Part shown: piece by piece, positions 2,524 through 34,068 of the stretch
Numbering within the stretch: position 1 is the first letter of the stretch
Layout: each line of letters begins with the position of its first letter
Source: a virus
Virus genome (UHGV): UHGV-1357478
Direction: 5' to 3' (one strand)
Length of the DNA: 39,244 nt
Position numbers and translations under genes: made by a program
The notes under the pieces: model-generated
The model's database searches: none
Told to the model about the DNA's origin: nothing
Seen by the model: only the letters and a program-made list of their open reading frames with translations

Positions 2524-4137
2524 GTGGATAATAAATTATTGAACGGTTCTAGGTTTGATAAAGAAGCAAATCTAGTTTATAAAGTACCAGTAAGCAAACT
2601 GCCTACTCGAATAATGCAATATTCGAACGGAGAAAAAGAAGAAGTCGTAGATTTTGAGCATCAGGATGTTTTTAATATGATTGTAAAATTTGTCCGACAT
2701 CATAAAGAAAAACAAGTTCCTCGCCTTAAAGAATTAAAGCGTTATTCTTTAGCACAAAATAATATTAAGTTTACTGAAGATAAAAGTGAAAATCGAGCAG
2801 ACAACAAGATTGCAAACGATTGGGCTAGATTTATTGTCAATTTTAAAAAAGGCGTATTACTAGGTAATCCTTTGAAGTACAATGGCGATAAAACTATAGC
2901 TGATAAAATTAATGATTTTTCTAGCAAATCAAATGAAGATTATCATAATCAGTTAATGTTAGACGACTTACTCGTATACGGAAGAGCATTTGAATATATC
3001 GGTAGAGATGAATACGGTAAAGAAATGTTAGCTAAATTCAGTCCAGAAGAAACGTTTATTATTTATGATACAACGACAAACAAAAATTCTGTATGTGCTG
3101 TTCACTGTTATGATCTCGATTTTAACGATGAAACATTTAGTTATATCGATATTTATGCAAATGATGGCTATTTTTATCAACATGAATCAAAAAATCAAGA
3201 CTATGAACAATCTAAATTGATTGATAAATATCAAACTTTCTTTGATTCTATTCAAGTAAATGAATGGATTAACAATGAGGAGCGTTTAGGAGATTTTGAA
3301 ACAGTTTTAGATAATATAGATGCATATGATCTATCGCAATCTTCAATGGCTAATTTCCAACAAGATTCATCTGAAGCTTATTTAGTTATTAAAGGAAACC
3401 CAGAAACTGCTATAGATGATGAAGATGGTAATTCTGCAGTAGACGTTTTAAACGACATGATAAAAGCTAGATTGTTAATCTTAGGAGATAAGAAATATTA
3501 TGGTGATGGCCAAACTGGTAGCGATCCTGATGCATACTACTTGAAAAAAGAGTATGATACACAAGGGACAGAGGCATATAATGACCGTTTGGTTTCTGAT
3601 ATGTTGCGCTTCACTTCTTTAATTGATTTTACCGATGAAAATATTGGGAGTAATCAGTCTGGTATTGGATTTAGATTTAAAGGTTGGGGAAGTGACAATG
3701 ATAGAAAGAACAAAGAAAGAATGGTCAAAAAAGCAATCATGAGAAGACTAAGATTACTAACTTATTCTTGGTCATTGAAAGATAACTTAAATAAACCAAC
3801 AGGGCTTGCTGAGAAAGTTAAGTCTTTTTTTGTATCTAGAGATAATGATAAAGAGCTGCTTTTTGAAAAGGTGAATGCTATAGAGATATTATTCACACCA
3901 AACGTTCCTCAATCAGATAAAGAAATTATGGAAGTTATTGCCGGAATGGTTGGAATTGTTTCAGATGAAACACTTTGCGAAATGGCGGCTAAATTGACTG
4001 GTGTTCCTGTTCAAACAGAACTAAAGAGATTGAAAAAGGAAAATCAGCCAGATACATTATCCGATGAAAATGCAGCGAAGCTTAAAGAAAAACAGGCAGA
4101 ATTTTTGGCGAATCAGTCGGAAACAGAGGAGGACTGA
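2524..4137 (+). CDS. portal protein
   Basis: 537 aa, immediately after terL, acidic C-terminus; matches the canonical order. Confidence 0.7.
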   Translation: MDNKLLNGSRFDKEANLVYKVPVSKLPTRIMQYSNGEKEEVVDFEHQDVFNMIVKFVRHHKEKQVPRLKELKRYSLAQNNIKFTEDKSENRADNKIANDWARFIVNFKKGVLLGNPLKYNGDKTIADKINDFSSKSNEDYHNQLMLDDLLVYGRAFEYIGRDEYGKEMLAKFSPEETFIIYDTTTNKNSVCAVHCYDLDFNDETFSYIDIYANDGYFYQHESKNQDYEQSKLIDKYQTFFDSIQVNEWINNEERLGDFETVLDNIDAYDLSQSSMANFQQDSSEAYLVIKGNPETAIDDEDGNSAVDVLNDMIKARLLILGDKKYYGDGQTGSDPDAYYLKKEYDTQGTEAYNDRLVSDMLRFTSLIDFTDENIGSNQSGIGFRFKGWGSDNDRKNKERMVKKAIMRRLRLLTYSWSLKDNLNKPTGLAEKVKSFFVSRDNDKELLFEKVNAIEILFTPNVPQSDKEIMEVIAGMVGIVSDETLCEMAAKLTGVPVQTELKRLKKENQPDTLSDENAAKLKEKQAEFLANQSETEED

Positions 4138-6869: not shown

Positions 6870-7883
6870 ATGGCAAATATTGCAGAATTATTTTCACAGA
6901 AAAATGTATTAGATTATGTAAATAATCGTCAAGCACCAGTTTTATTAGGAGAAACATTGTTTCCAGCACGTAAGGTACAGGGGTTAGAGTTTGATGTTTT
7001 AAAAGCGGGATCTAAAATCCCAACAATTGCAAGCGTTCATGCATTCGATACAGAAGCTGAGATTGCTTCACGTGTTGGATCAAAGACAGCTCAAGAGCTG
7101 GCGTTCATCAAACGTAAGATTCAATTAAAAGAAAAAGATTTAATGGCTTTACGCAAGCCTCGTGATGCAGCAGAACAACGTTTTTTAGAACAAGAAGTGT
7201 ACAACGATGTAGATGCAATGGTTGGATCTGTAAATGCGCGTGTTGAAAAGATGCGAATGGAAGTATTAGCAAATGGTAAAGTAACGTTAGATGAAAATGG
7301 GTTAGATTTAGTAGTTGATTATGGTGTGCCAGAAGATCATAAAGGTACTGCTGATTTTTCTGCTCCTGATACAGACATCATTGGGTTATTAACAGAATGG
7401 GCAAGCAAGTTGGATGTAATGCCAACACGCATTTTGACATCTACTAAAGTGCGTAACGCAATCTTGAAAAACGACGGAATCAAGGCATTCTTTAAAACTT
7501 CTGGTTTGTTACCAAATGTTGGCTCGTTAAACCAAATGTTACAACAATTTAATTTACCGACAATTGTGACATATGATGCAAAATATAATAAAGAAAACGC
7601 TGAAGGTGTACTAGTAAAAGAACGTTATTTCCCAGAAAACAAGCTAGTCATGTTTGGGGATGAAAACCCAGGAGAGTCTATTTTCGGTGTAACACCAGAA
7701 GAATCTCGTTTGTTATCAACTGGATCAAATAACTACACAGTAGGCAATATTTTCGCAATGGTATACGAATCTAATTTAGACCCAGTTGGAACATGGACTA
7801 AAGCATCAGGAACAGCTCTACCAAGTTTCCCAGAAGCTGACAATGTATTCCAAGCTACTGTCTTACCTGATTCAAAAAAATAG
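6870..7883 (+). CDS. major capsid protein
   Basis: 337 aa after the scaffold; strong RBS AGGAGG. The 3' end carries a candidate -1 frameshift extension to 7945. Confidence 0.65.
   Translation: MANIAELFSQKNVLDYVNNRQAPVLLGETLFPARKVQGLEFDVLKAGSKIPTIASVHAFDTEAEIASRVGSKTAQELAFIKRKIQLKEKDLMALRKPRDAAEQRFLEQEVYNDVDAMVGSVNARVEKMRMEVLANGKVTLDENGLDLVVDYGVPEDHKGTADFSAPDTDIIGLLTEWASKLDVMPTRILTSTKVRNAILKNDGIKAFFKTSGLLPNVGSLNQMLQQFNLPTIVTYDAKYNKENAEGVLVKERYFPENKLVMFGDENPGESIFGVTPEESRLLSTGSNNYTVGNIFAMVYESNLDPVGTWTKASGTALPSFPEADNVFQATVLPDSKK
7874..7880 (+). other. candidate -1 ribosomal frameshift site, A_AAA_AAA abutting UAG
   Basis: tcA AAA AAA TAG at the capsid 3' end. The -1 frame is open 7871..7945 and encodes ...KIEAPKVESVIPTTDGASIVLS*. 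A stem (gccccg/cggggc) begins 5 nt downstream. Confidence 0.5.
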
Positions 7884-7956
7884 AAGCCCCGAAAGTTGAA
7901 AGTGTAATACCAACAACTGACGGGGCCTCAATTGTATTAAGTTAGGTGGTGTTTAA

Positions 7957-9377: not shown

Positions 9378-9908
9378 ATGGCTAATGAAGCAAAAGTAGC
9401 GGCTAAAGGTATTGATATTATTTTACTTTTCCGTTTGTTAAAAAAATCAAAAGAGGAAGCAGCATGGAAATTAGCTTTCCAGACAGAACATGAAAATACA
9501 AAAACAAAAGATAGTGATTCTGTGGCCACTAAAGATGGTCCGATTCGCATCCCAGGATCATTGGAAATTGATTTTTCGGCAACATCTATTTTATCAGTCG
9601 GTGATCCGTATGTTGACCAGCTAGAAGAAGCTTTAGACAATGACGATATTATTGAAATCTGGGAAATCAACAAAGCAGAAAAAGGCACAGGAGATAATGC
9701 TGACAAATACAAGGCAACCTATTACCAAGGATATGTAACATCATTTGGTAAATCGCCTAATGCTGAAGACACCGTAGAAGTTTCATTAGAATTTGGTATC
9801 AATGGTAAAGGTGCAAAAGGATTTGCAACATTAACTGCTGATCAAGAAGAAGTAGTTCAATATGTCTTCAAAGATACGACTATTGAAACAGCTGATCCGG
9901 GAAAGTAG
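9378..9908 (+). CDS. major tail protein
   Basis: 176 aa, position. The 3' end carries a candidate -1 frameshift extension to 9970. Confidence 0.65.
   Translation: MANEAKVAAKGIDIILLFRLLKKSKEEAAWKLAFQTEHENTKTKDSDSVATKDGPIRIPGSLEIDFSATSILSVGDPYVDQLEEALDNDDIIEIWEINKAEKGTGDNADKYKATYYQGYVTSFGKSPNAEDTVEVSLEFGINGKGAKGFATLTADQEEVVQYVFKDTTIETADPGK
9899..9905 (+). other. candidate -1 ribosomal frameshift site, G_GGA_AAG abutting UAG
   Basis: ccG GGA AAG TAG. The -1 frame is open 9896..9970 and encodes ...GKVDSPYVGSVTPTVDGASIELS*. A stem (agccc/gggct) begins 5 nt downstream. Confidence 0.5.
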
Positions 9909-9985
9909 ACAGCCCTTATGTGGGAAGTGTAACTCCTACAGTCGATGGGGCTTCTATTGAATTAAGCTAAGAAAGGAAAATAAAT

Positions 9986-10444
9986 ATGGTGGATACTTTT
10001 AAAATTTATAAAGGCCAAACCGAAGTTGTTTCCGGCACATCACCTTTAACTATAACAGGAATGGAACCTAACACCTCTGTGCCAGTTGGTGAGTACCAAG
10101 TAACTCGTGTTGTTAATGGGAAAGAATCAGAGCGAGTAGATATTCCAGCTTTTAAAACATTGTCTATTGCTGTAACTGGCTTAGAGTTTTCTCCTAAAAC
10201 ATCAACAGCAGATGCGGGTACTGCAGGTAGCCGACAAATCACAGCAACTGTCTTGCCTGAAAATGCAACCAACAAAAAAGTAACCTATAAGATTACGCCT
10301 GAAACAGAAGGTCTTGCTGTCTCTGAAACAGGAAATATTACTTGGACAGAAGCGGTACCGGCTGGTGTTTATACCACAACAGGAACAACAGAGGATGGTA
10401 AAAAAACAGCTCAACACACCTTAACATTGAATAATCAAGCTTAA
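9986..10444 (+). CDS. Ig-like (Big_2-type) domain protein, tail/virion surface
   Basis: Thr/Val-rich beta-rich sequence typical of bacterial Ig-like domains; RBS AAGGAAA. Confidence 0.55.
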   Translation: MVDTFKIYKGQTEVVSGTSPLTITGMEPNTSVPVGEYQVTRVVNGKESERVDIPAFKTLSIAVTGLEFSPKTSTADAGTAGSRQITATVLPENATNKKVTYKITPETEGLAVSETGNITWTEAVPAGVYTTTGTTEDGKKTAQHTLTLNNQA

Positions 10445-10498: not shown

Positions 10499-10849
10499 AT
10501 GCAAATCGAAATTAAAGGGAAAAAATATAACTGTATTTTTGGAGTCAAGTTTATTCGTGAATTGGATAAGCAGCATGGGGTAGTTCGTAATGATGTGAAT
10601 CTTGGTATGGGACTAACAACTTTATTACCGCAGCTAGTAAGTGGAAATATCGTTGTTCTATCTTATGTACTTTACACAGCTACCATTACGGAAAAAAGTA
10701 GACCTTCTAAGGATGAAGTAGATGAGTTTGTTGAAACTGTTGATGATATTGAGGCGTTATTTGATGAAACGTTGAAAAACTTAGAAGAAAGCAATGCGGG
10801 AAAGTTAACGGTCAGAAATTTCAAGAAAGCTCTGATGGAGAACAAGTAA
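10499..10849 (+). CDS. tail assembly chaperone (gpG-like)
   Basis: 116 aa immediately upstream of the tape measure gene. Confidence 0.65.
   Translation: MQIEIKGKKYNCIFGVKFIRELDKQHGVVRNDVNLGMGLTTLLPQLVSGNIVVLSYVLYTATITEKSRPSKDEVDEFVETVDDIEALFDETLKNLEESNAGKLTVRNFKKALMENK
10798..10804 (+). other. -1 programmed frameshift site G_GGA_AAG (G -> G-T fusion)
   Basis: Heptamer in the G frame. The -1 frame is open from 10768 through 11199. Confidence 0.6.
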
Positions 10850-11199
10850 GAGAGGAACTAACCTCAGCTGAAGCTTATGAAAATATTCTTATTAATTGTT
10901 TTCGTTACCTAGAAATTACTGATTTATCAGAAATTGAACGAATGACTTTGTATGAATATGAAGTTAGGCTATTGGCGTTTCAGTTAAAAAGACTTGACCA
11001 TGAAAGAGACCTCTATCTTCAATCTTGGCTAAATAACCAAATTAAGGCGACTAAAGGTAAAAAATCCGAACCTTATTATAAGGAATTCAATAAGTTTTTC
11101 AATTATGAAGAACGAGAGAAGCTTATTTTGGGTAAATCATTAATTGATGAAAAAGTTGATATAGGAGCAATTGATTTATTAAGAAAAGCAAATAAGTAG
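10801..11199 (+). CDS. gpT-like part of the G-T chaperone (by -1 frameshift from 10499)
   Basis: -1 frame relative to G. Conserved arrangement upstream of the tape measure gene. Confidence 0.55.
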   Translation, partial: KVNGQKFQESSDGEQVREELTSAEAYENILINCFRYLEITDLSEIERMTLYEYEVRLLAFQLKRLDHERDLYLQSWLNNQIKATKGKKSEPYYKEFNKFFNYEEREKLILGKSLIDEKVDIGAIDLLRKANK

Positions 11200-11214: not shown

Positions 11215-14200
11215 ATGGAATCATATTCAGTCGAAGCAATACTTACTGCTACTGATAGAACGTTTAGTAGCACGATGAGTAGCGCTGAACGTTCAATGGC
11301 TGGTGTAAACAAGCAATCTGGTGAGCTAGGTGATGGATTGGATAAAAGCACCACTAAAGGGAATCAATTAGGCAAGTCAATTCTTAGTATTGGAGCAGGT
11401 GTGGGCGCTGTAAAATTAGTATCTACGGCCGTAAATATGGTTAAGGACTCTGTTGAAGGAGCGATTAACCGTTTTGATACGTTGAATAAGTATCCTGTAG
11501 TTATGAAGGCTCTAGGTTACTCAACAGAAGATGTTGATCGGTCCATGAATAAACTATCTGATGGGATTGATGGATTACCTACATCCCTCGATGAAATTGT
11601 AGCTAGTACGCAACAACTATCAATTTCAACTGGTAGCTTGAGTAAAGGGACTGACACAGCTATTGCATTAAATGATGCCTTTCTTGCTTCTGGAGCTTCA
11701 ACTGCTGATGCAACTCGTGGTATGCAACAATATATTCAAATGCTCGGTAAGGGTGAAGTTGATATGCAGTCTTGGCGAACATTACAAGAAACAATGCCGA
11801 TTGCGATGGATAAAGTTGCTAAGTCTTTCAAAGAACAAGGTGTAAACTCAGTTAACCAATTATATGATGCCTTAAAAGAAGGAGATATTACATTTAATGA
11901 GTTCAATAATCGTTTGATTGAGTTGGACAAAGGCGTAGGTGGTTTTGCGGATTTAGCCAAGAAAAACTCAAAAGGTATCAAGACCTCATGGGCAAATATT
12001 AAAACAGCCACCGTTAAAGGTGTAACTACAGTTATTAAATCATTTGATGAATTATCCAAAGCAGTGACAGGAAAAAATATTGCCGAAAACTTAGACTCTT
12101 TAAAAAATGTTGTTAATATAACTTTTAAGGCAATTGATGCAGCGATTCAATCAACTATTCCGTTGATGAAACTATTCGGAAAAGCTATTACGTCGATAGG
12201 TACAGCCTTAACACCATTACTACCAACAATTGCCAGTTTTGCTGCCACCTTTACAGCATTGAAAGTAATTCAGCAAGTGACAGGCTATATAAAACAATCT
12301 GAATTGGCAATCAAAGCTTATACAACCGCAATAAGTTTATACAATGGAATATCAAAACTGGCAACGTTATCTACTACAGCACTCGGAAGAGCATGGATGT
12401 TAAACCTAGCAGCCGATAAAGCAAATTCTGCAGCAATAGCAATAAAAACTGGTCTTTTAGTGGCGCAAAATACAATCGTTGGTGTTTTGACGGGAACAAT
12501 TAGTTTAGCTACAGTAGCTACAACTGTTTTTAGTACCGCTATGAAATTGTTGATGGGCCCTATTGGTTGGGTAACAGCTGCAATAGGAGGGCTAGTAGCT
12601 GTAGGGGTAAACTTGTGGAAATGGTTAAATAAGGAAACTGAATCAACTAAGGCAGTTAAAAAAGAACAAGAAAACCTTATGAAAACTACAGATGACTTGA
12701 TTAAAAAGAATCAAGAACATACCCAATCACGAAAAGATGAAGCTATTGAGTTAGAAAATACTAAAGAAAAATTCCAATCTTTGATTTCTGAAATGGAAAT
12801 GCTCGCTGCAAAAGAGAAATTAAGTAACAGCGAGAAAAAACGCATGACAGAAATTGTTGAAGAGTTAAACGGTAAAATGACTGGTTTAAACTTAGTTTAC
12901 GATGAACAAAGTAATAAACTTTCTGAAATGCCAGGTAAAATTCAACAACAAGTTGATGCCTATAATGCTTTAGATGAAGCTTCTCAAGCTCAAGAAAACA
13001 TTAATCAAATGTTAAAAGAACGAAATGATAATGAAGCGAAGTTGATGGAAATCAATGCCGCTAGAGAAAAATGGAACCAAACTTTAAAAGAATCTGGTGG
13101 GAATACAAAAGAAGCTCGTGAAAATATTGAAAAGTTGGGCGAGCAAGAGCAAGTGTTAAAGGGCGTTCAACAGGAATTAACGAATGAAATTATAAATACA
13201 GCTAATGCCCATGAACAATCAATGCAGCGTGCAAGCCAAGCTGTGGAAAATGGCGTGTTAAATCAAACAGTTTCATACAATGCTTTAAGTGGTAAGACGA
13301 AAGAAACAATGGATGCAATGCGTTCAGAATATTCATCGCTTGAAGAAAAAGTAGGGAGTGCTTTTGATGTTATTGAACAAAAGCAAGCTATTTCGGTTGA
13401 TCAGATGGCTGCTAACCTACAGAAGAACCAAGAAGCTGTTGCACAGTGGGGACAAAATATTTCAACTCTTGCAGAACGACATGTTGACCAGGGGTTATTG
13501 GAACAACTTAGAAAAATGGGACCAGAGGGTGCAGCACAAGCAGCAGAGCTTGTTAATGCATCAGACGAACAATTACAACGCTTGAATGATGTTTATCGTA
13601 ATACCGGGGAAACTTCCATGAATGCGATGAAAGAAGGCTACCAGTTAGGTAAAAATGGTGTTAATGAGGAAATAGCAAGCTTAATCCCAACTCAAAAAGA
13701 AACTTTGATGACTCAGATTAAGAGCACCGATTTTAATAGCGTTGGTCTAAGTGTAACCGAAAACTTTAAAGCAGGTATTGAGAATGGACGTACAGCAGTC
13801 GAAGAAATGACCAAAGGAATTGTTCCTAAAGTCGGGGAAGACATGAAAGGCGAAGTTCAAAAAGCTGATTTCAGAGGTATTGGTAAGTCCATTCCTCAAG
13901 GATTAGAAAAAGGTGTTGACGACGGCAAAGGAGTTCCTGTAAAAACATCTAACCAAATGATTGATGATATTGTTTCTGGTGCCAGAAAAGGTTTAGATTC
14001 TCACTCTCCTTCTCGTGTATTTCACTCAATTGGTGAAGATGTTGATTCTGGATTATCAAACGGTATCGAACAAAACGCAATGAATCCAGTAAGAGCTGTT
14101 GAGTCTATTGTTGATAAAATAATTTCTGCAATGGATAAATTGCCATCAGAAATGAATTCTATCGGAGCAAATGCAATTGATGGATTGACTAATGGTATTA

Positions 14201-14622
14201 ACGCCAATGCTAATAGTGCTTTAGCTGCAGCAAGAGGTGTGGCAGATCAAATTGTAAGTACAATGAAAAGCGCTATGGATATTCATTCTCCATCACGTGT
14301 AATGCGTGACGAAGTAGGTAAAATGATTCCAGCAGGAGTAGCGGTTGGTATTGATAAATATTCAAACTTTGTAGAAAAATCTATGCAACGACTAAGTAAA
14401 AAAGTAGCCATGCCCGCGCTGGATAATTTAAATTCAAATCTGTCATTTAGTGGCGGAACACAAAGTTTAGCGTTTTCTGGAGATGTATCTTCAAAATTCA
14501 CTGTGGAGGTACCTGTTATTTTAGATAGTACAGAGGTTGCAAGGGTTATTGCTAAACCAATGAGTAAAGAATTACAGAATCAACAAGATAAAAAAAATGT
14601 TTCTTTAGGAAGGAGGCGCTAA
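11215..14622 (+). CDS. tape measure protein
   Basis: 1135 aa with hydrophobic segments and coiled coil; two HSPSRV motifs near the C-terminus. Confidence 0.85.
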   Translation: MESYSVEAILTATDRTFSSTMSSAERSMAGVNKQSGELGDGLDKSTTKGNQLGKSILSIGAGVGAVKLVSTAVNMVKDSVEGAINRFDTLNKYPVVMKALGYSTEDVDRSMNKLSDGIDGLPTSLDEIVASTQQLSISTGSLSKGTDTAIALNDAFLASGASTADATRGMQQYIQMLGKGEVDMQSWRTLQETMPIAMDKVAKSFKEQGVNSVNQLYDALKEGDITFNEFNNRLIELDKGVGGFADLAKKNSKGIKTSWANIKTATVKGVTTVIKSFDELSKAVTGKNIAENLDSLKNVVNITFKAIDAAIQSTIPLMKLFGKAITSIGTALTPLLPTIASFAATFTALKVIQQVTGYIKQSELAIKAYTTAISLYNGISKLATLSTTALGRAWMLNLAADKANSAAIAIKTGLLVAQNTIVGVLTGTISLATVATTVFSTAMKLLMGPIGWVTAAIGGLVAVGVNLWKWLNKETESTKAVKKEQENLMKTTDDLIKKNQEHTQSRKDEAIELENTKEKFQSLISEMEMLAAKEKLSNSEKKRMTEIVEELNGKMTGLNLVYDEQSNKLSEMPGKIQQQVDAYNALDEASQAQENINQMLKERNDNEAKLMEINAAREKWNQTLKESGGNTKEARENIEKLGEQEQVLKGVQQELTNEIINTANAHEQSMQRASQAVENGVLNQTVSYNALSGKTKETMDAMRSEYSSLEEKVGSAFDVIEQKQAISVDQMAANLQKNQEAVAQWGQNISTLAERHVDQGLLEQLRKMGPEGAAQAAELVNASDEQLQRLNDVYRNTGETSMNAMKEGYQLGKNGVNEEIASLIPTQKETLMTQIKSTDFNSVGLSVTENFKAGIENGRTAVEEMTKGIVPKVGEDMKGEVQKADFRGIGKSIPQGLEKGVDDGKGVPVKTSNQMIDDIVSGARKGLDSHSPSRVFHSIGEDVDSGLSNGIEQNAMNPVRAVESIVDKIISAMDKLPSEMNSIGANAIDGLTNGINANANSALAAARGVADQIVSTMKSAMDIHSPSRVMRDEVGKMIPAGVAVGIDKYSNFVEKSMQRLSKKVAMPALDNLNSNLSFSGGTQSLAFSGDVSSKFTVEVPVILDSTEVARVIAKPMSKELQNQQDKKNVSLGRRR

Positions 14623-22722: not shown

Positions 22723-23391
22723 ATGAAAAAGGATATTCAGACAGAATATAAGAGGTATTGTGAATATCTGGAGAGTTACTTTCCAGAAACATCGCTTGCG
22801 CATAATAAATCAGAAATCTTAGTAAAGGATGTATTTGAAGTTACGATGTCTCTTTCTAAAATAGCTCATTTTCTTGACGAAGATAGTAATTATTCTTATT
22901 TTACAAATTTAATTGAATATAATTTGAATAATTTACTTTATTTTTTACCCTTGAATGAACTAGTTTCATATAATGTTTCAATTAGAAATTGTACTGAAGC
23001 AATTTTGAAAATGATTTTTACATTGGAAGATGAAGATGTTGATCATAAATCTACTGGATATAGAACTATGAAAGATAACAGAGAAAGACTTTTGATATAC
23101 CAAAAACATAAGAACAAAATTGATAATCTTTTTTCAATTTATAGTAACAGATCCAATTCTTTACATTTGAAAAAAGCAAATGAAGTTGAATTGACGAAAA
23201 TGTTGGAAAATAAGTTATGTCGTCAAATAAATAAAACAGAAATGAATGAAATCAAGCAAGATTTAAGTAATTGCAAAACAACATTATTAGAAGTTATATG
23301 TTTTTACAACATAGATTTATCCACTCAGCAAAAATTGAATCTCAAAAGATTTGTATCAAAATCATGGATAGAAAAGTTATACTGTTTATAG
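22723..23391 (+). CDS. hypothetical protein (222 aa), possible HEPN-like R-x4-H motif
   Basis: Starts 4 nt after the previous stop. RSNSLH at aa 143-148. Compositionally all-alpha. Very AT-rich. Confidence 0.55.
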   Translation: MKKDIQTEYKRYCEYLESYFPETSLAHNKSEILVKDVFEVTMSLSKIAHFLDEDSNYSYFTNLIEYNLNNLLYFLPLNELVSYNVSIRNCTEAILKMIFTLEDEDVDHKSTGYRTMKDNRERLLIYQKHKNKIDNLFSIYSNRSNSLHLKKANEVELTKMLENKLCRQINKTEMNEIKQDLSNCKTTLLEVICFYNIDLSTQQKLNLKRFVSKSWIEKLYCL

Positions 23392-33123: not shown

Positions 33124-34068
33124 GTGGCTGAAATTAGCTGGATAAAATTAAGCACTAGTTTACCTGATAATAAGAAAATCAAGCGAATACGTAAATTGCC
33201 AGATGGCGATCGAGTAATTTTGTTTTGGGTATTTTTATTAGCTCGTGCTGGTGAAAGCAACCAAAAAGGCGGATTGTTCTTAACTGATACTTTGCCCTAT
33301 TCAGATGAAGATTTAGCAGCTGATTTTGATTTCACAGTTGAGTTTGTAAAGTTTGCCATTTTAACTTTGGAAAAATACAGCATGGTAACAACCTATGAAG
33401 ATGTAATTTTCATTAAGAACTGGGAAGAATATCAAGCTATTGATGGTATGGAAAAAGTCAAAGAGCAAAATCGCATTAGACAAGCGAAATACCGAGAAAA
33501 ACAAAAGCAACTGTCATTAAGTAACGTTACTAGTAACGTTACACGTAACGCTGATGTAACGCTGAGTAACGGAACAGATAAAGATATAGATAAAGAAATA
33601 GATAAAGATAATAAAGAAGAGTCAAAGAAACCTCCTTGTAAATATTCTGACGAACATTTACGTCTTGCTCAAAAATTACAAAATAATTTAATCAATGATT
33701 TTCCAAGTGAAATGAAAAAAGTGAAGATTGAAAAATGGGCAGATGTTTTCAGATTAATCGAAGAACGAGATCAACAAACTATTGCAGCAATTGACTATGT
33801 TCTTGATTGGTTACCGACAAATTCATTTTGGTTTGGAAACATTAGAAGTGCTTCTAAGCTAAGAACGCAGTTTGAAAAACTAAAATTTGAAATCAAGAAT
33901 GAAAAAGAACGGGGCCAACAACGAACGACTTACAAACGTCAAAATGTTAGGACTGAAAATTTACCAGAATGGGCAAAAGAACCAAATAAACAGCAAGAAG
34001 AAAAGCTATCGCCAGAAGAGCAAGCGGAACTTGATAGACAAATAAAAGAATTCATGGAGGGAAAATGA
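33124..34068 (+). CDS. replisome organiser / DnaD-like replication initiator
   Basis: N-terminus MAEISWIKLSTSLPDNKKIKRI...LFWVFLLARAGES matches the phage replisome-organiser N-domain. Internal iterons. Confidence 0.7.
   Translation: MAEISWIKLSTSLPDNKKIKRIRKLPDGDRVILFWVFLLARAGESNQKGGLFLTDTLPYSDEDLAADFDFTVEFVKFAILTLEKYSMVTTYEDVIFIKNWEEYQAIDGMEKVKEQNRIRQAKYREKQKQLSLSNVTSNVTRNADVTLSNGTDKDIDKEIDKDNKEESKKPPCKYSDEHLRLAQKLQNNLINDFPSEMKKVKIEKWADVFRLIEERDQQTIAAIDYVLDWLPTNSFWFGNIRSASKLRTQFEKLKFEIKNEKERGQQRTTYKRQNVRTENLPEWAKEPNKQQEEKLSPEEQAELDRQIKEFMEGK
33521..33575. repeat. GTAACG(T/C)T iterons (x5): candidate origin of replication inside the initiator gene
   Basis: agtaacgtt actagtaacgtt acacgtaacgct gatgtaacgct gagtaacgg. 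Confidence 0.55.

Follow-up and report, generated by a model that had tools for sequence, protein, structure and literature searches.

Introduction

Longer capsid or tail-tube subunits made by recoding are established for bacteriophages SPP1, A2, PSA, A118, A500, T3 and T7 (PMC8718954, PMC5009743). In SPP1, recoding yields two major tail proteins, gp17.1 and gp17.1*, in a 3:1 ratio, and the added fibronectin type III (FN3) sequence is exposed on the tail tube and is dispensable for viability (PMC8718954). In the Lactobacillus phage A2 and the Listeria phages PSA, A118 and A500, both the capsid and the tail protein are extended by recoding near the 3' ends of their genes, the direction of the shift, -1 or +1, depending on the phage (PMC5009743). 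The added piece in the known frameshift-made proteins is understood as a whole immunoglobulin-like (Ig-like) domain carried in cis, and weak carbohydrate binding is the usual proposal for the Ig-like domains of phages (PMC8718954). Here we analyse a recoding site at the end of the gene for the major tail protein (MTP), the tail-tube subunit, of the virus genome UHGV-1357478, a stretch of 39,244 nucleotides that is referred to below as the window.

The window represents a temperate Enterococcus faecalis siphophage of the phiEf11/EFC-1/IME197 group, with DNA identity of 96-99% over the region. Judged from the window and its relatives, a fraction of the ribosomes very probably shifts by -1 at the tail site and produces an MTP that bears an additional C-terminal peptide, hereafter the tag. 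The tag probably supplies strands A and B to an incomplete FN3 domain at the start of the Ig-like protein encoded by the next gene (9986-10444), thereby fixing that protein to tail subunits, and a related tag on the capsid protein would do likewise on the head.

Results

Recoding site of the tail-tube gene

A reading made from the sequence alone had suggested that the MTP gene closes with a programmed -1 frameshift module, matching one in the capsid gene. The MTP open reading frame (ORF) does end with the codons CCG GGA AAG TAG, so that a heptamer in the X_XXY_YYZ phase abuts the stop codon and the first new codon of the -1 frame overlaps that stop (Table 1). In the -1 frame, a TGA at 9893-9895 is followed by an open stretch from 9896 to 9967 that is closed by the TAA at 9968-9970, and its translation appends the proposed 21-residue peptide. 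The stem that had been noted by eye, agccc (9911-9915) with gggct (9948-9952), begins 5 nucleotides past the heptamer and belongs to the predicted minimum-free-energy structure. The same GGGAAAG is indeed present in phase at the tail assembly chaperone G/GT site of this phage, where the -1 frame runs on to the end of the second product. These sequence elements therefore all stand as the sequence-only reading had described them. Inspection of the site revealed no start codon with a Shine-Dalgarno sequence able to express the tail tag alone. The calculated masses without the initiator methionine are 19,132 Da for the MTP and 21,207 Da for the 197-residue tagged form (MTP-tag), and the calculated monoisotopic peptide masses are 2092.02 Da for VDSPYVGSVTPTVDGASIELS and 1586.84 Da for the C-terminal peptide VESVIPTTDGASIVLS. 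The Ig-like protein is calculated at 15,925 Da, and the capsid protein, if unprocessed, at 37,188 Da, or 39,296 Da with its tag.

The heptamer by itself proves nothing; what makes it significant is the comparison with relatives. With 5 occurrences in the window and 4.1 expected, GGGAAAG is not enriched, and the long ORFs of the window contain 65 in-phase XXXYYYZ heptamers. Three of these 65 lie at most two codons from a stop: the tail site, the capsid site at 7874 and a GGGAAAA heptamer at 34059-34068, two codons ahead of a stop. This last heptamer was considered as a further shift site and rejected as an ordinary gene overlap; a GGAGGG Shine-Dalgarno sequence precedes the ATG of the next gene, which overlaps the stop (ATGA), and the -1 frame is the frame of that next gene.

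Conservation of the out-of-frame extension

About 95 loci encoding the family of the window Ig-like protein were collected, and the tag sequence set, drawn from about 100 loci in phages of Enterococcus, Bacillaceae, Vagococcus and Tetragenococcus, held 67 distinct coding sequences. A -1 shift is required in 64 of the 67, each from a shift-prone site adjoining the stop, which occupies the homologous G/UAR position in essentially all 64. The sites fall into several types, counted over distinct tags: xxG_GGG_GAG_UAR (32), C_CCA_AAA_xxx_UAR (13), G_GGA_AAG_UAG as in the window (9) and A_AAA_AAA_UAR (3); G_GGA_AAC and G_GGA_AAA also occur. The recurrent xxG_GGG_GAG_UAA/G site closes unrelated capsid and tail genes (locus L004, 2410-2421 and 4881-4892; L005, 2411-2422; L002, 73-84); it is non-canonical, departing from X_XXY_YYZ, and holds a Shine-Dalgarno-like GGGGGAG. 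The frames at the shift sites are inconsistent in two draft genomes of the JCM 190xx series (L077/L097, about 2905-2925; L076/L096), where assembly indel errors are suspected.

Bacillaceae prophages share this layout, as do the Triavirus and Kayvirus phages of Staphylococcus. At nearly all of the loci, the gene just upstream of the Ig-like gene ends at a shift-prone site beside its stop, and a homologous extension of about 20 residues, with the consensus ..P.(I/V)..V(T)PT(T)DGA.I(E/D/N)L(S/T/K), lies in another frame and ends just ahead of the ribosome-binding site of the Ig-like gene. The upstream gene encodes a tail-tube protein (phrog_238/phrog_820) or a capsid protein (Phage_cap_E, phrog_840, phrog_544 or the EFC-1 type). 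The tag of the Vagococcus lineage L095 lies in the +1 frame at ACA_CCC_UAG, adjoining the stop. The capsid and tail genes of Staphylococcus aureus Triavirus phages both end with TTA_CCC_AGC_TAA and have homologous +1 tags, with CCC one codon before the stop (1737-1748 and 3898-3909 in phi12, L102; the same positions in phage 47, L104). That several recoding solutions have come to occupy one homologous place strongly suggests that the extension has to be produced, and in part of the molecules only.

The closest relatives provide a finer view. The phiEf11-like set comprised 40 loci with 13 haplotypes. The MTP gene of phiEf11 itself is 63 nucleotides longer than that of the window and encodes the identical 21 residues in frame, which indicates that the extension is coding sequence; the in-frame state results from one extra nucleotide, CCAGAAAAAGTAG in place of CC-GGGAAAGTAG. 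The shift is needed in 35 of the 40 loci, and GGGAAAGTAG is invariant in all 35. The codon that provides the first G of the heptamer varies among CCG, CTG and TCG (Pro, Leu and Ser) in these 35 loci with the third-position G kept, which points to selection on the nucleotide and not on the amino acid. Two in-frame tail tags arose independently, one with CCAGAAAAAGTAG in phiEf11 (L001, 4041-4172) and three metagenome contigs, and one with GATCACGGGAAAGTAG in a single contig (L013, about 2900-2985). The tail site thus combines a heptamer in phase, an open and conserved -1 frame, an adjacent stop and stem, and a conserved out-of-frame arrangement.

Selection on the tag and on the stem-loop

The fold predicted at the tail site has a free energy of -20.8 kcal/mol, with a z score of -2.66 relative to dinucleotide shuffles. 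Compared with synonymous recodings of the same peptide, the fold reached -21.7 versus -12.7 +/- 2.8, and 0 of 300 recodings were as stable. The same test across the family gave a mean z of -1.64, with p <= 0.05 in 42% of the sequences. Codon usage was compared over 35 representative tags. The invariant residues (Pro, Pro-Thr and Gly) use synonymous codons freely. The wobble position before the first Pro codon is C in 34 of the 35 tags, across codons for Ala, Ser, Pro, Thr, Asp, Gly and others, and the Gly codon is GGG in 32; in the window, 11.6% of third positions are C and 12.1% of Gly codons are GGG. The fixed wobble C and the GGG codon extend a CCCC/GGGG stem. These patterns support purifying selection on the predicted tag peptide and nucleotide-level selection on the stem. 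Together with the in-frame tail of phiEf11 and the 64 out-of-frame tags, they support the frameshift module that had been proposed at the end of the MTP gene. The Rfam search returned no family at its gathering score for the modules; a weak match to rdlD (27.4 bits, gathering score 50) on the minus strand at 7880-7943, over the hairpin of the capsid tag, was judged to be due to chance.

Two halves of one FN3 domain

The 152-residue Ig-like protein encoded downstream of the MTP gene matches phrog_341 with an E value of 1e-52, and its Pfam Big_2 match is weak. Its family consists of free-standing proteins of about 150-165 residues from phages and prophages of Bacillota. The family members always start with M.FKIYKG..VV.G.SPLTITG.EPNT....G.YQ..RV....ES.RVDIPAFKT, a segment termed here the N-domain, which resembles strands C to G of an FN3 domain that lacks A and B and is followed by Big_2. 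The AlphaFold model of the window Ig-like protein is confident, with a predicted local distance difference test (pLDDT) score >90, and shows strands C, C', F and G. The segment SPLTITG, corresponding to strand E, is left without a sheet partner, as expected for a domain in which the neighbouring strands A and B are absent. Two strands are predicted in the tail tag: A, at about YVGSVTP (9917-9937), and B, at about ASIELS (9950-9967).

An exhaustive profile search with the N-domain identified 454 relatives, many of them short proteins that start with the domain, together with unsplit forms; a word-based protein search for unsplit homologues, with the Kayvirus tag and P3 as query, returned short split proteins only. 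In the unsplit proteins P0203, P0172 and P0188, the tag-like and N-domain-like segments are contiguous (...PPTIESVTPTEDGAVVIVVSGNGIDGSTMKVYQASDDTEIASSESPVTITGLEPNTTYPEGTFYI...VDIPEFTT). The window tag and N-domain, when joined, align to P0203 in a single BLASTP segment with 42% identity over 86 residues and an E value of 3e-15, and their profile aligns to the P0203 domain with an hhalign probability of 98.9%. AlphaFold models the tag-homologous residues of P0203 as strands A (246-252) and B (257-262) of a seven-strand domain with pLDDT of about 84-96, in which strand E is paired. The best Foldseek matches of this model are the FN3 tandems of fibronectin and titin, with a probability of 1.00. 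The seven-strand A-B-C-C'-E-F-G sandwich is thus seen in the homologue P0203, and not in a complex of the window proteins. Two further family members, P0031 and P0111, have precomputed matches to the Pfam fn3 family (PF00041).

The contiguous homology to P0203 and its modelled strands A and B identify the appended 21 residues and the N-terminus of the Ig-like protein as the two predicted halves of a single FN3 domain that is divided in the B-C loop, and the split sits exactly in that loop in every lineage. By this homology the extension is not a domain in itself and matches strands A and B only. A complete Ig-like or FN3 domain in cis, which is absent from the window extension, is found in the relatives L099 and L079-L086.

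The capsid tag and its coupling with the N-domain

The -1 frame at the end of the capsid gene reads KKIEAPKVESVIPTTDGASIVLS, a homologue of the tail tag, and a GCCCCG/CGGGGC stem lies downstream. A tag profile built without the capsid tag detected it with an E value of 9e-8. The capsid and tail extensions, whose modules the sequence-only reading had matched, are homologous copies of one tag. Profile searches of the window found exactly two tags and exactly one N-domain. Capsid and tail tags with a single Ig-like gene are also found in L004, L005, L006, EFC-1/IME197 and the Staphylococcus phages phi12 and 47. The two tags within one genome share lineage-specific features, whereas the genes that carry them belong to unrelated families.

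The census of this coupling covered 105 loci. One N-domain accompanies two tags in 81 loci and one tag in 10, and neither the N-domain gene nor tags are present in 8 loci whose structural gene is joined directly, by frameshift, to the homologous Big_2. Joined forms of Big_2 are of several kinds. In L099 (2935-3792) Big_2 is joined to the capsid gene by a -1 shift at the same GGGGGAGTAA site, with no FN3 piece; in L100 (2185-3306) a homologous Big_2 is joined to the capsid gene in frame; and in L079 and L081-L086 the Big_2 frame is open without a start codon, with neither FN3 piece nor tags. The Kayvirus phages (phage K group; phiSA039, L103, 4335-5746) have in-frame tags and a three-gene chain of split FN3 junctions. 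The first gene encodes a 210-residue protein ending with ..SAPKNVQVTPTEDGADVSAE, the second an FN3 domain lacking A and B followed by Big_2 and ..PEAPADVTVEPGENSADITA, and the third a 75-residue protein that consists only of an FN3 domain lacking A and B.

Published virion protein data

Published mass spectra were compared with calculated masses. In the matrix-assisted laser desorption/ionization (MALDI) spectra of Triavirus virions the Ig-like protein appears free at 15,871 Da (PMC5923470). The mass calculated for it without methionine is 15,871.2 Da, and this agreement with the stand-alone mass shows that the Triavirus Ig-like protein is a separate, abundant virion protein. A further peak at 25,208 Da is common to six Triavirus phages and is absent from the assigned proteins of Table 3 of that study, in which frameshifting is never mentioned (PMC5923470). 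The +1-shifted MTP-tag of phage 47 has a calculated mass of 25,204.7 Da, and its unshifted MTP, observed at 23,298 Da, a calculated mass of 23,294.7 Da. The peptide predicted to span the junction and tag of the Triavirus +1 product is ANPQNVEVAVNSK. Kayvirus virions hold all three members of the chain described above, at 23,069, 17,718 and 7,818 Da (PMC5923470), the 7.8-kDa protein being the one formed by the incomplete domain only. Virions of phiEf11 contain two capsid-protein bands, for which a -1 shift at the AAAAAAA site of ORF10 was proposed and marked as speculative (PMC5221750). An apparent mass of 28-30 kDa is reported for the phiEf11 tail protein, compared with 21.5 kDa predicted.

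Genome context

The features of the region are listed in Table 1. The DNA of the MTP gene is 98-99% identical to the MTP genes of EFC-1 and IME197, and the window MTP is related to that of TP901-1.

Table 1 Features of the tail and capsid recoding sites and of the surrounding genes in the window.
Feature	Coordinates	Strand	Evidence and remarks
Scaffold protein gene	5852-6493		Gene order upstream of the capsid gene
Major capsid protein gene, 337 aa	6870..7883	+	PF03864 Phage_cap_E, E 5e-37; bears the twin site
Capsid twin site	7874..7945	+	tcA_AAA_AAA 7874-7880; stop UAG 7881-7883; predicted -1 tag IEAPKVESVIPTTDGASIVLS 7880-7942; stop 7943-7945
Neck genes	Between the capsid and MTP genes
Major tail (tube) protein (MTP) gene, zero-frame product 176 aa	9378..9908	+	PF06199 Phage_tail_2, E 7e-18; phrog_238 'major tail protein', E 3e-65
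Slippery heptamer G_GGA_AAG	9899..9905	+	Read from the sequence; X_XXY_YYZ phase, codons CCG GGA AAG
Putative -1 frame extension (tag) VDSPYVGSVTPTVDGASIELS, 21 residues	9905..9970	+	Translation; in frame in phiEf11; stop UAA 9968-9970
Zero-frame stop UAG	9906..9908	+	Immediately 3' of the heptamer; first new -1 codon GUA overlaps the stop
Predicted stimulatory stem-loop	9906..9956	+	Fold; outer 9906-9909/9953-9956 (4 bp), core 9911-9916/9947-9952, inner hairpin 9919-9925/9934-9940
Shine-Dalgarno region (GAAAGGAAA) and spacer of the Ig-like gene	9971..9985	+	Immediately after the tag stop
Gene of the free-standing Ig-like protein, 152 aa	9986..10444	+	Annotated as a second "major tail protein"; N-domain aa ~1-58 (nt 9986-10159), FN3 strands C-G without A and B; Big_2 aa 62-144 (nt 10169-10417)
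Tail assembly chaperone G/GT pair	10499..11199	+	PF12363 Phage_TAC_12, E 2e-31; first ORF 10499-10849; G_GGA_AAG 10798-10804, -1 frame runs to 11199
Tape measure protein gene	11215-14622

Discussion

Proposed mechanism

We infer that a minority of the ribosomes on the MTP messenger RNA of this phage slip back by one base at the G_GGA_AAG heptamer. The slip would be favoured by the UAG that otherwise occupies the A site, by the stem-loop 5 nucleotides downstream and by the slipperiness of the heptamer itself. Shifted ribosomes would read GUA over the stop and add VDSPYVGSVTPTVDGASIELS, such that a 197-residue MTP-tag is made beside the 176-residue MTP. The A-B hairpin of the tag would then complete the incomplete FN3 domain of the Ig-like protein in trans, a two-strand complementation that would tether this protein non-covalently to the tagged tail-tube subunits. 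On the head, a -1 shift at A_AAA_AAA would give some of the capsid subunits the capsid tag, to which the same Ig-like protein would attach, and the inferred efficiency of the frameshift would set the density of decoration on head and tail. The Ig-like gene would be translated independently, as its own ribosome-binding site indicates, together with the tag and gene frames that differ from one another in L004, L005 and L006. Its Big_2 domain presumably has the role suggested for other Ig-like domains of phages, weak binding to carbohydrate at the surface.

The data support directly the sequence features, the conserved recoding arrangement, the homology of the tag and N-domain to a contiguous FN3 domain, and the co-occurrence of tags and N-domain. 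The explanation as a whole, a frameshift-made tag and docking of the Ig-like protein through a split FN3 domain, is in our judgement probable for the window. With similar confidence, we favour a broader proposal, by which 'tag and dock' would be a decoration system shared by many phages of Bacillota, among them phiEf11-like and other Enterococcus phages, Bacillaceae prophages and the Staphylococcus Triavirus and Kayvirus groups. An FN3 domain would be split and its A-B hairpin of about 20 residues placed on a fraction of the subunits of both capsid and tail tube, in most cases through a -1 or +1 shift at the stop codon; a single free protein with the other FN3 strands and Ig-like domains would complete the fold in trans and serve both structures; recoding would set the occupancy; and the module, including the shift site and stem-loop, would move between unrelated structural genes.

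Several observations weigh against this explanation. For the phage of the window, the shifted MTP product is predicted from the sequence and from relatives, and in phiEf11, mass spectrometry did not recover the peptide of the capsid extension (PMC5221750). The in-frame variants of the phiEf11 type and L013 indicate that limiting the tag by frameshifting is not indispensable. Column-wise covariation of the stem is weak and not significant, a result that we attribute to a pairing register that slides by one between sequences and to core pairs that lie in conserved Pro and Gly codons and never vary. Pfam fn3 (PF00041) did not match the window tag and N-domain, either separate or joined, and comparisons of the joined-alignment profile with PDB sequences and, by hhalign, with the human tenth FN3 domain were insignificant and confined to the E-F region. 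An AlphaFold single-chain fusion of the tag, the natural ERKIN linker and the Ig-like protein left the tag undocked and disordered; residues 1-28 had pLDDT <50, while the Ig-like part was confident, and the outcome says little about docking because the tag columns had no alignment depth. Finally, the tail gene of L100 has a tag with no N-domain gene within the available stretch.

Alternative explanations

The -1 shift may be real and the added tail act alone, as a flexible C-terminal arm for assembly of the tube or for contact with the cell surface, in which case the adjacency of the Ig-like gene would be a relic of an ancestral FN3-Big_2 fusion that was cut. In the AlphaFold models the downstream protein needs no tag to fold confidently and the tag is disordered, the tag of L100 has no N-domain gene nearby, and the Big_2 fusions by frameshift or in frame (L099, L079-L086, L100) make a fused ancestor plausible. 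We nevertheless consider a lone tail unlikely. Its co-occurrence with the N-domain is near-perfect (one N-domain with two tags in 81 loci versus 8 loci with neither), a different, unrelated structural gene at a distance of about 2 kb bears a second tag, which has lineage-specific features in common with the first, and the split falls exactly in the B-C loop in every lineage. The Kayvirus protein of 7.8 kDa that consists of the incomplete domain only is, moreover, a virion component.

Loss of function by mutation has far less to recommend it. If a one-base deletion in a phiEf11-like ancestor had cut the tail protein, the heptamer would be there by chance and no meaningful extended protein would be made. 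In its favour, phiEf11 has the tail in frame, this AT-rich genome is rich in in-phase heptamers, as the 65 in the long ORFs illustrate, and an open frame of 21 codons is not rare by chance. However, the out-of-frame state is the rule, being found in 64 of 67 distinct sequences, on unrelated capsid and tail genes and in several genera, and the heptamer and stop remain invariant in 35 loci while flanking codons change. Peptide and stem are conserved, whereas decay is expected after loss of function, and the obligatory G/GT shift of this phage is driven by an identical heptamer. Such a relic is thus very improbable.

A second recoding event, readthrough or bypass of the UAA at 9968-9970, could in principle join the tag and the Ig-like protein in one polypeptide, given that unsplit homologues exist and that in the window the -1 frame and the next gene share one frame (9905 and 9986 are both 2 modulo 3), with the stop and five codons between them. 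This idea was rejected on the differing frames of the tag and the next gene in L004, L005 and L006, and we regard it as still more remote than a relic: the Ig-like gene is equipped with a Shine-Dalgarno sequence and an ATG of its own, and in Triavirus the Ig-like protein is found at its stand-alone mass while another species matches the MTP plus the tag only. Transcriptional slippage, in which stuttering of the RNA polymerase and not a ribosomal shift makes the extension, is scarcely credible, in that the seven A of the capsid twin and the run of five G in many relatives can support slippage but the exact X_XXY_YYZ phase, the adjacent stop and the conserved downstream stem are hallmarks of ribosomal shifting, and the runs of the tail site, GGG and AAA, are too short for efficient polymerase slippage, as judged against general knowledge of slippage-prone runs.

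Significance

If the tag-and-dock explanation is correct, recoding marks a controlled fraction of subunits with a half-domain peptide onto which a separate protein snaps. It would account for the presence, in many Gram-positive phages, of a small "second major tail protein" gene next to the gene for the tail or capsid protein, for the abundance of its product in virions despite the lack of a recognisable binding domain, and for unassigned masses in the published spectra of Staphylococcus phages. The annotated capsid and tail genes of phage groups in clinical use (Enterococcus phages, S. aureus Triavirus and Kayvirus) would need correcting, and a natural, genetically compact peptide-protein pair would become available for the display of cargo on phage heads and tails at tunable density.

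Comparison with known systems

The frameshift itself is a known kind of event; the reading as a split-domain tag that docks a separate protein is, as far as searched, apparently undescribed. No description of a split FN3 domain or of a tag-docking system serving two structural proteins was found in the literature searched, many subscription papers lying outside its coverage, and the structure paper on Brochothrix phage NF5 reports neither a frameshift nor a decoration protein.

SPP1 gp17.1* arises by a +1 shift. The window resembles SPP1 in that recoding takes place at the very end of the tail-tube gene, beside the stop, and would yield a subset of C-terminally extended subunits. It differs in that SPP1 adds a complete FN3 domain in cis, whereas here a -1 shift would add strands A and B only, about 21 residues, and the remainder of the FN3 domain together with Big_2 is the product of a separate gene. 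The extensions of A2 and of the Listeria phages are likewise described as whole Ig-like domains in cis, with no separate partner, in contrast to the half-domain and partner protein proposed here. The CCC_stop site of the PSA type resembles the sites of L095 and Triavirus, and a search of Listeria phage records at E <= 1e-8 detected no member of the family of the 9986-10444 product.

The heptamer of the lambda G/GT genes is G_GGA_AAG. The tail site is thus similar to lambda G/GT, for which the mechanism is described (PMC5009743), in both heptamer and -1 direction; in lambda, by contrast, another gene is involved, the product is an assembly chaperone absent from the virion, and the shift occurs well before the stop. 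Another precedent is the proposal for ORF10 of phiEf11, a phage 96% identical to the window, which has A_AAA_AAA_UAG, a 21-residue extension and a downstream stem (PMC5221750). Its authors found no alternative frame for the tail protein, in which the tag is already in frame, and made no link between the extension and ORF16 or FN3 (PMC5221750).

Two further groups of systems are related in principle. T5 pb10 and T4 Hoc are similar in being free-standing proteins with one attachment module and one or more exposed Ig-like domains. They bind the assembled lattice by a complete domain, whereas in the arrangement proposed here an incomplete domain would bind a peptide present on some of the subunits, and head and tail would both be decorated. 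In chaperone-usher pili and in split Ig-like domains of the SpyTag type, an incomplete sandwich is completed by strands from another polypeptide. The pili use one strand and their subunits polymerise, and SpyTag forms a covalent bond. The present system has no homology to either, and differs from both in that two N-terminal FN3 strands would be supplied by a tail made by recoding.

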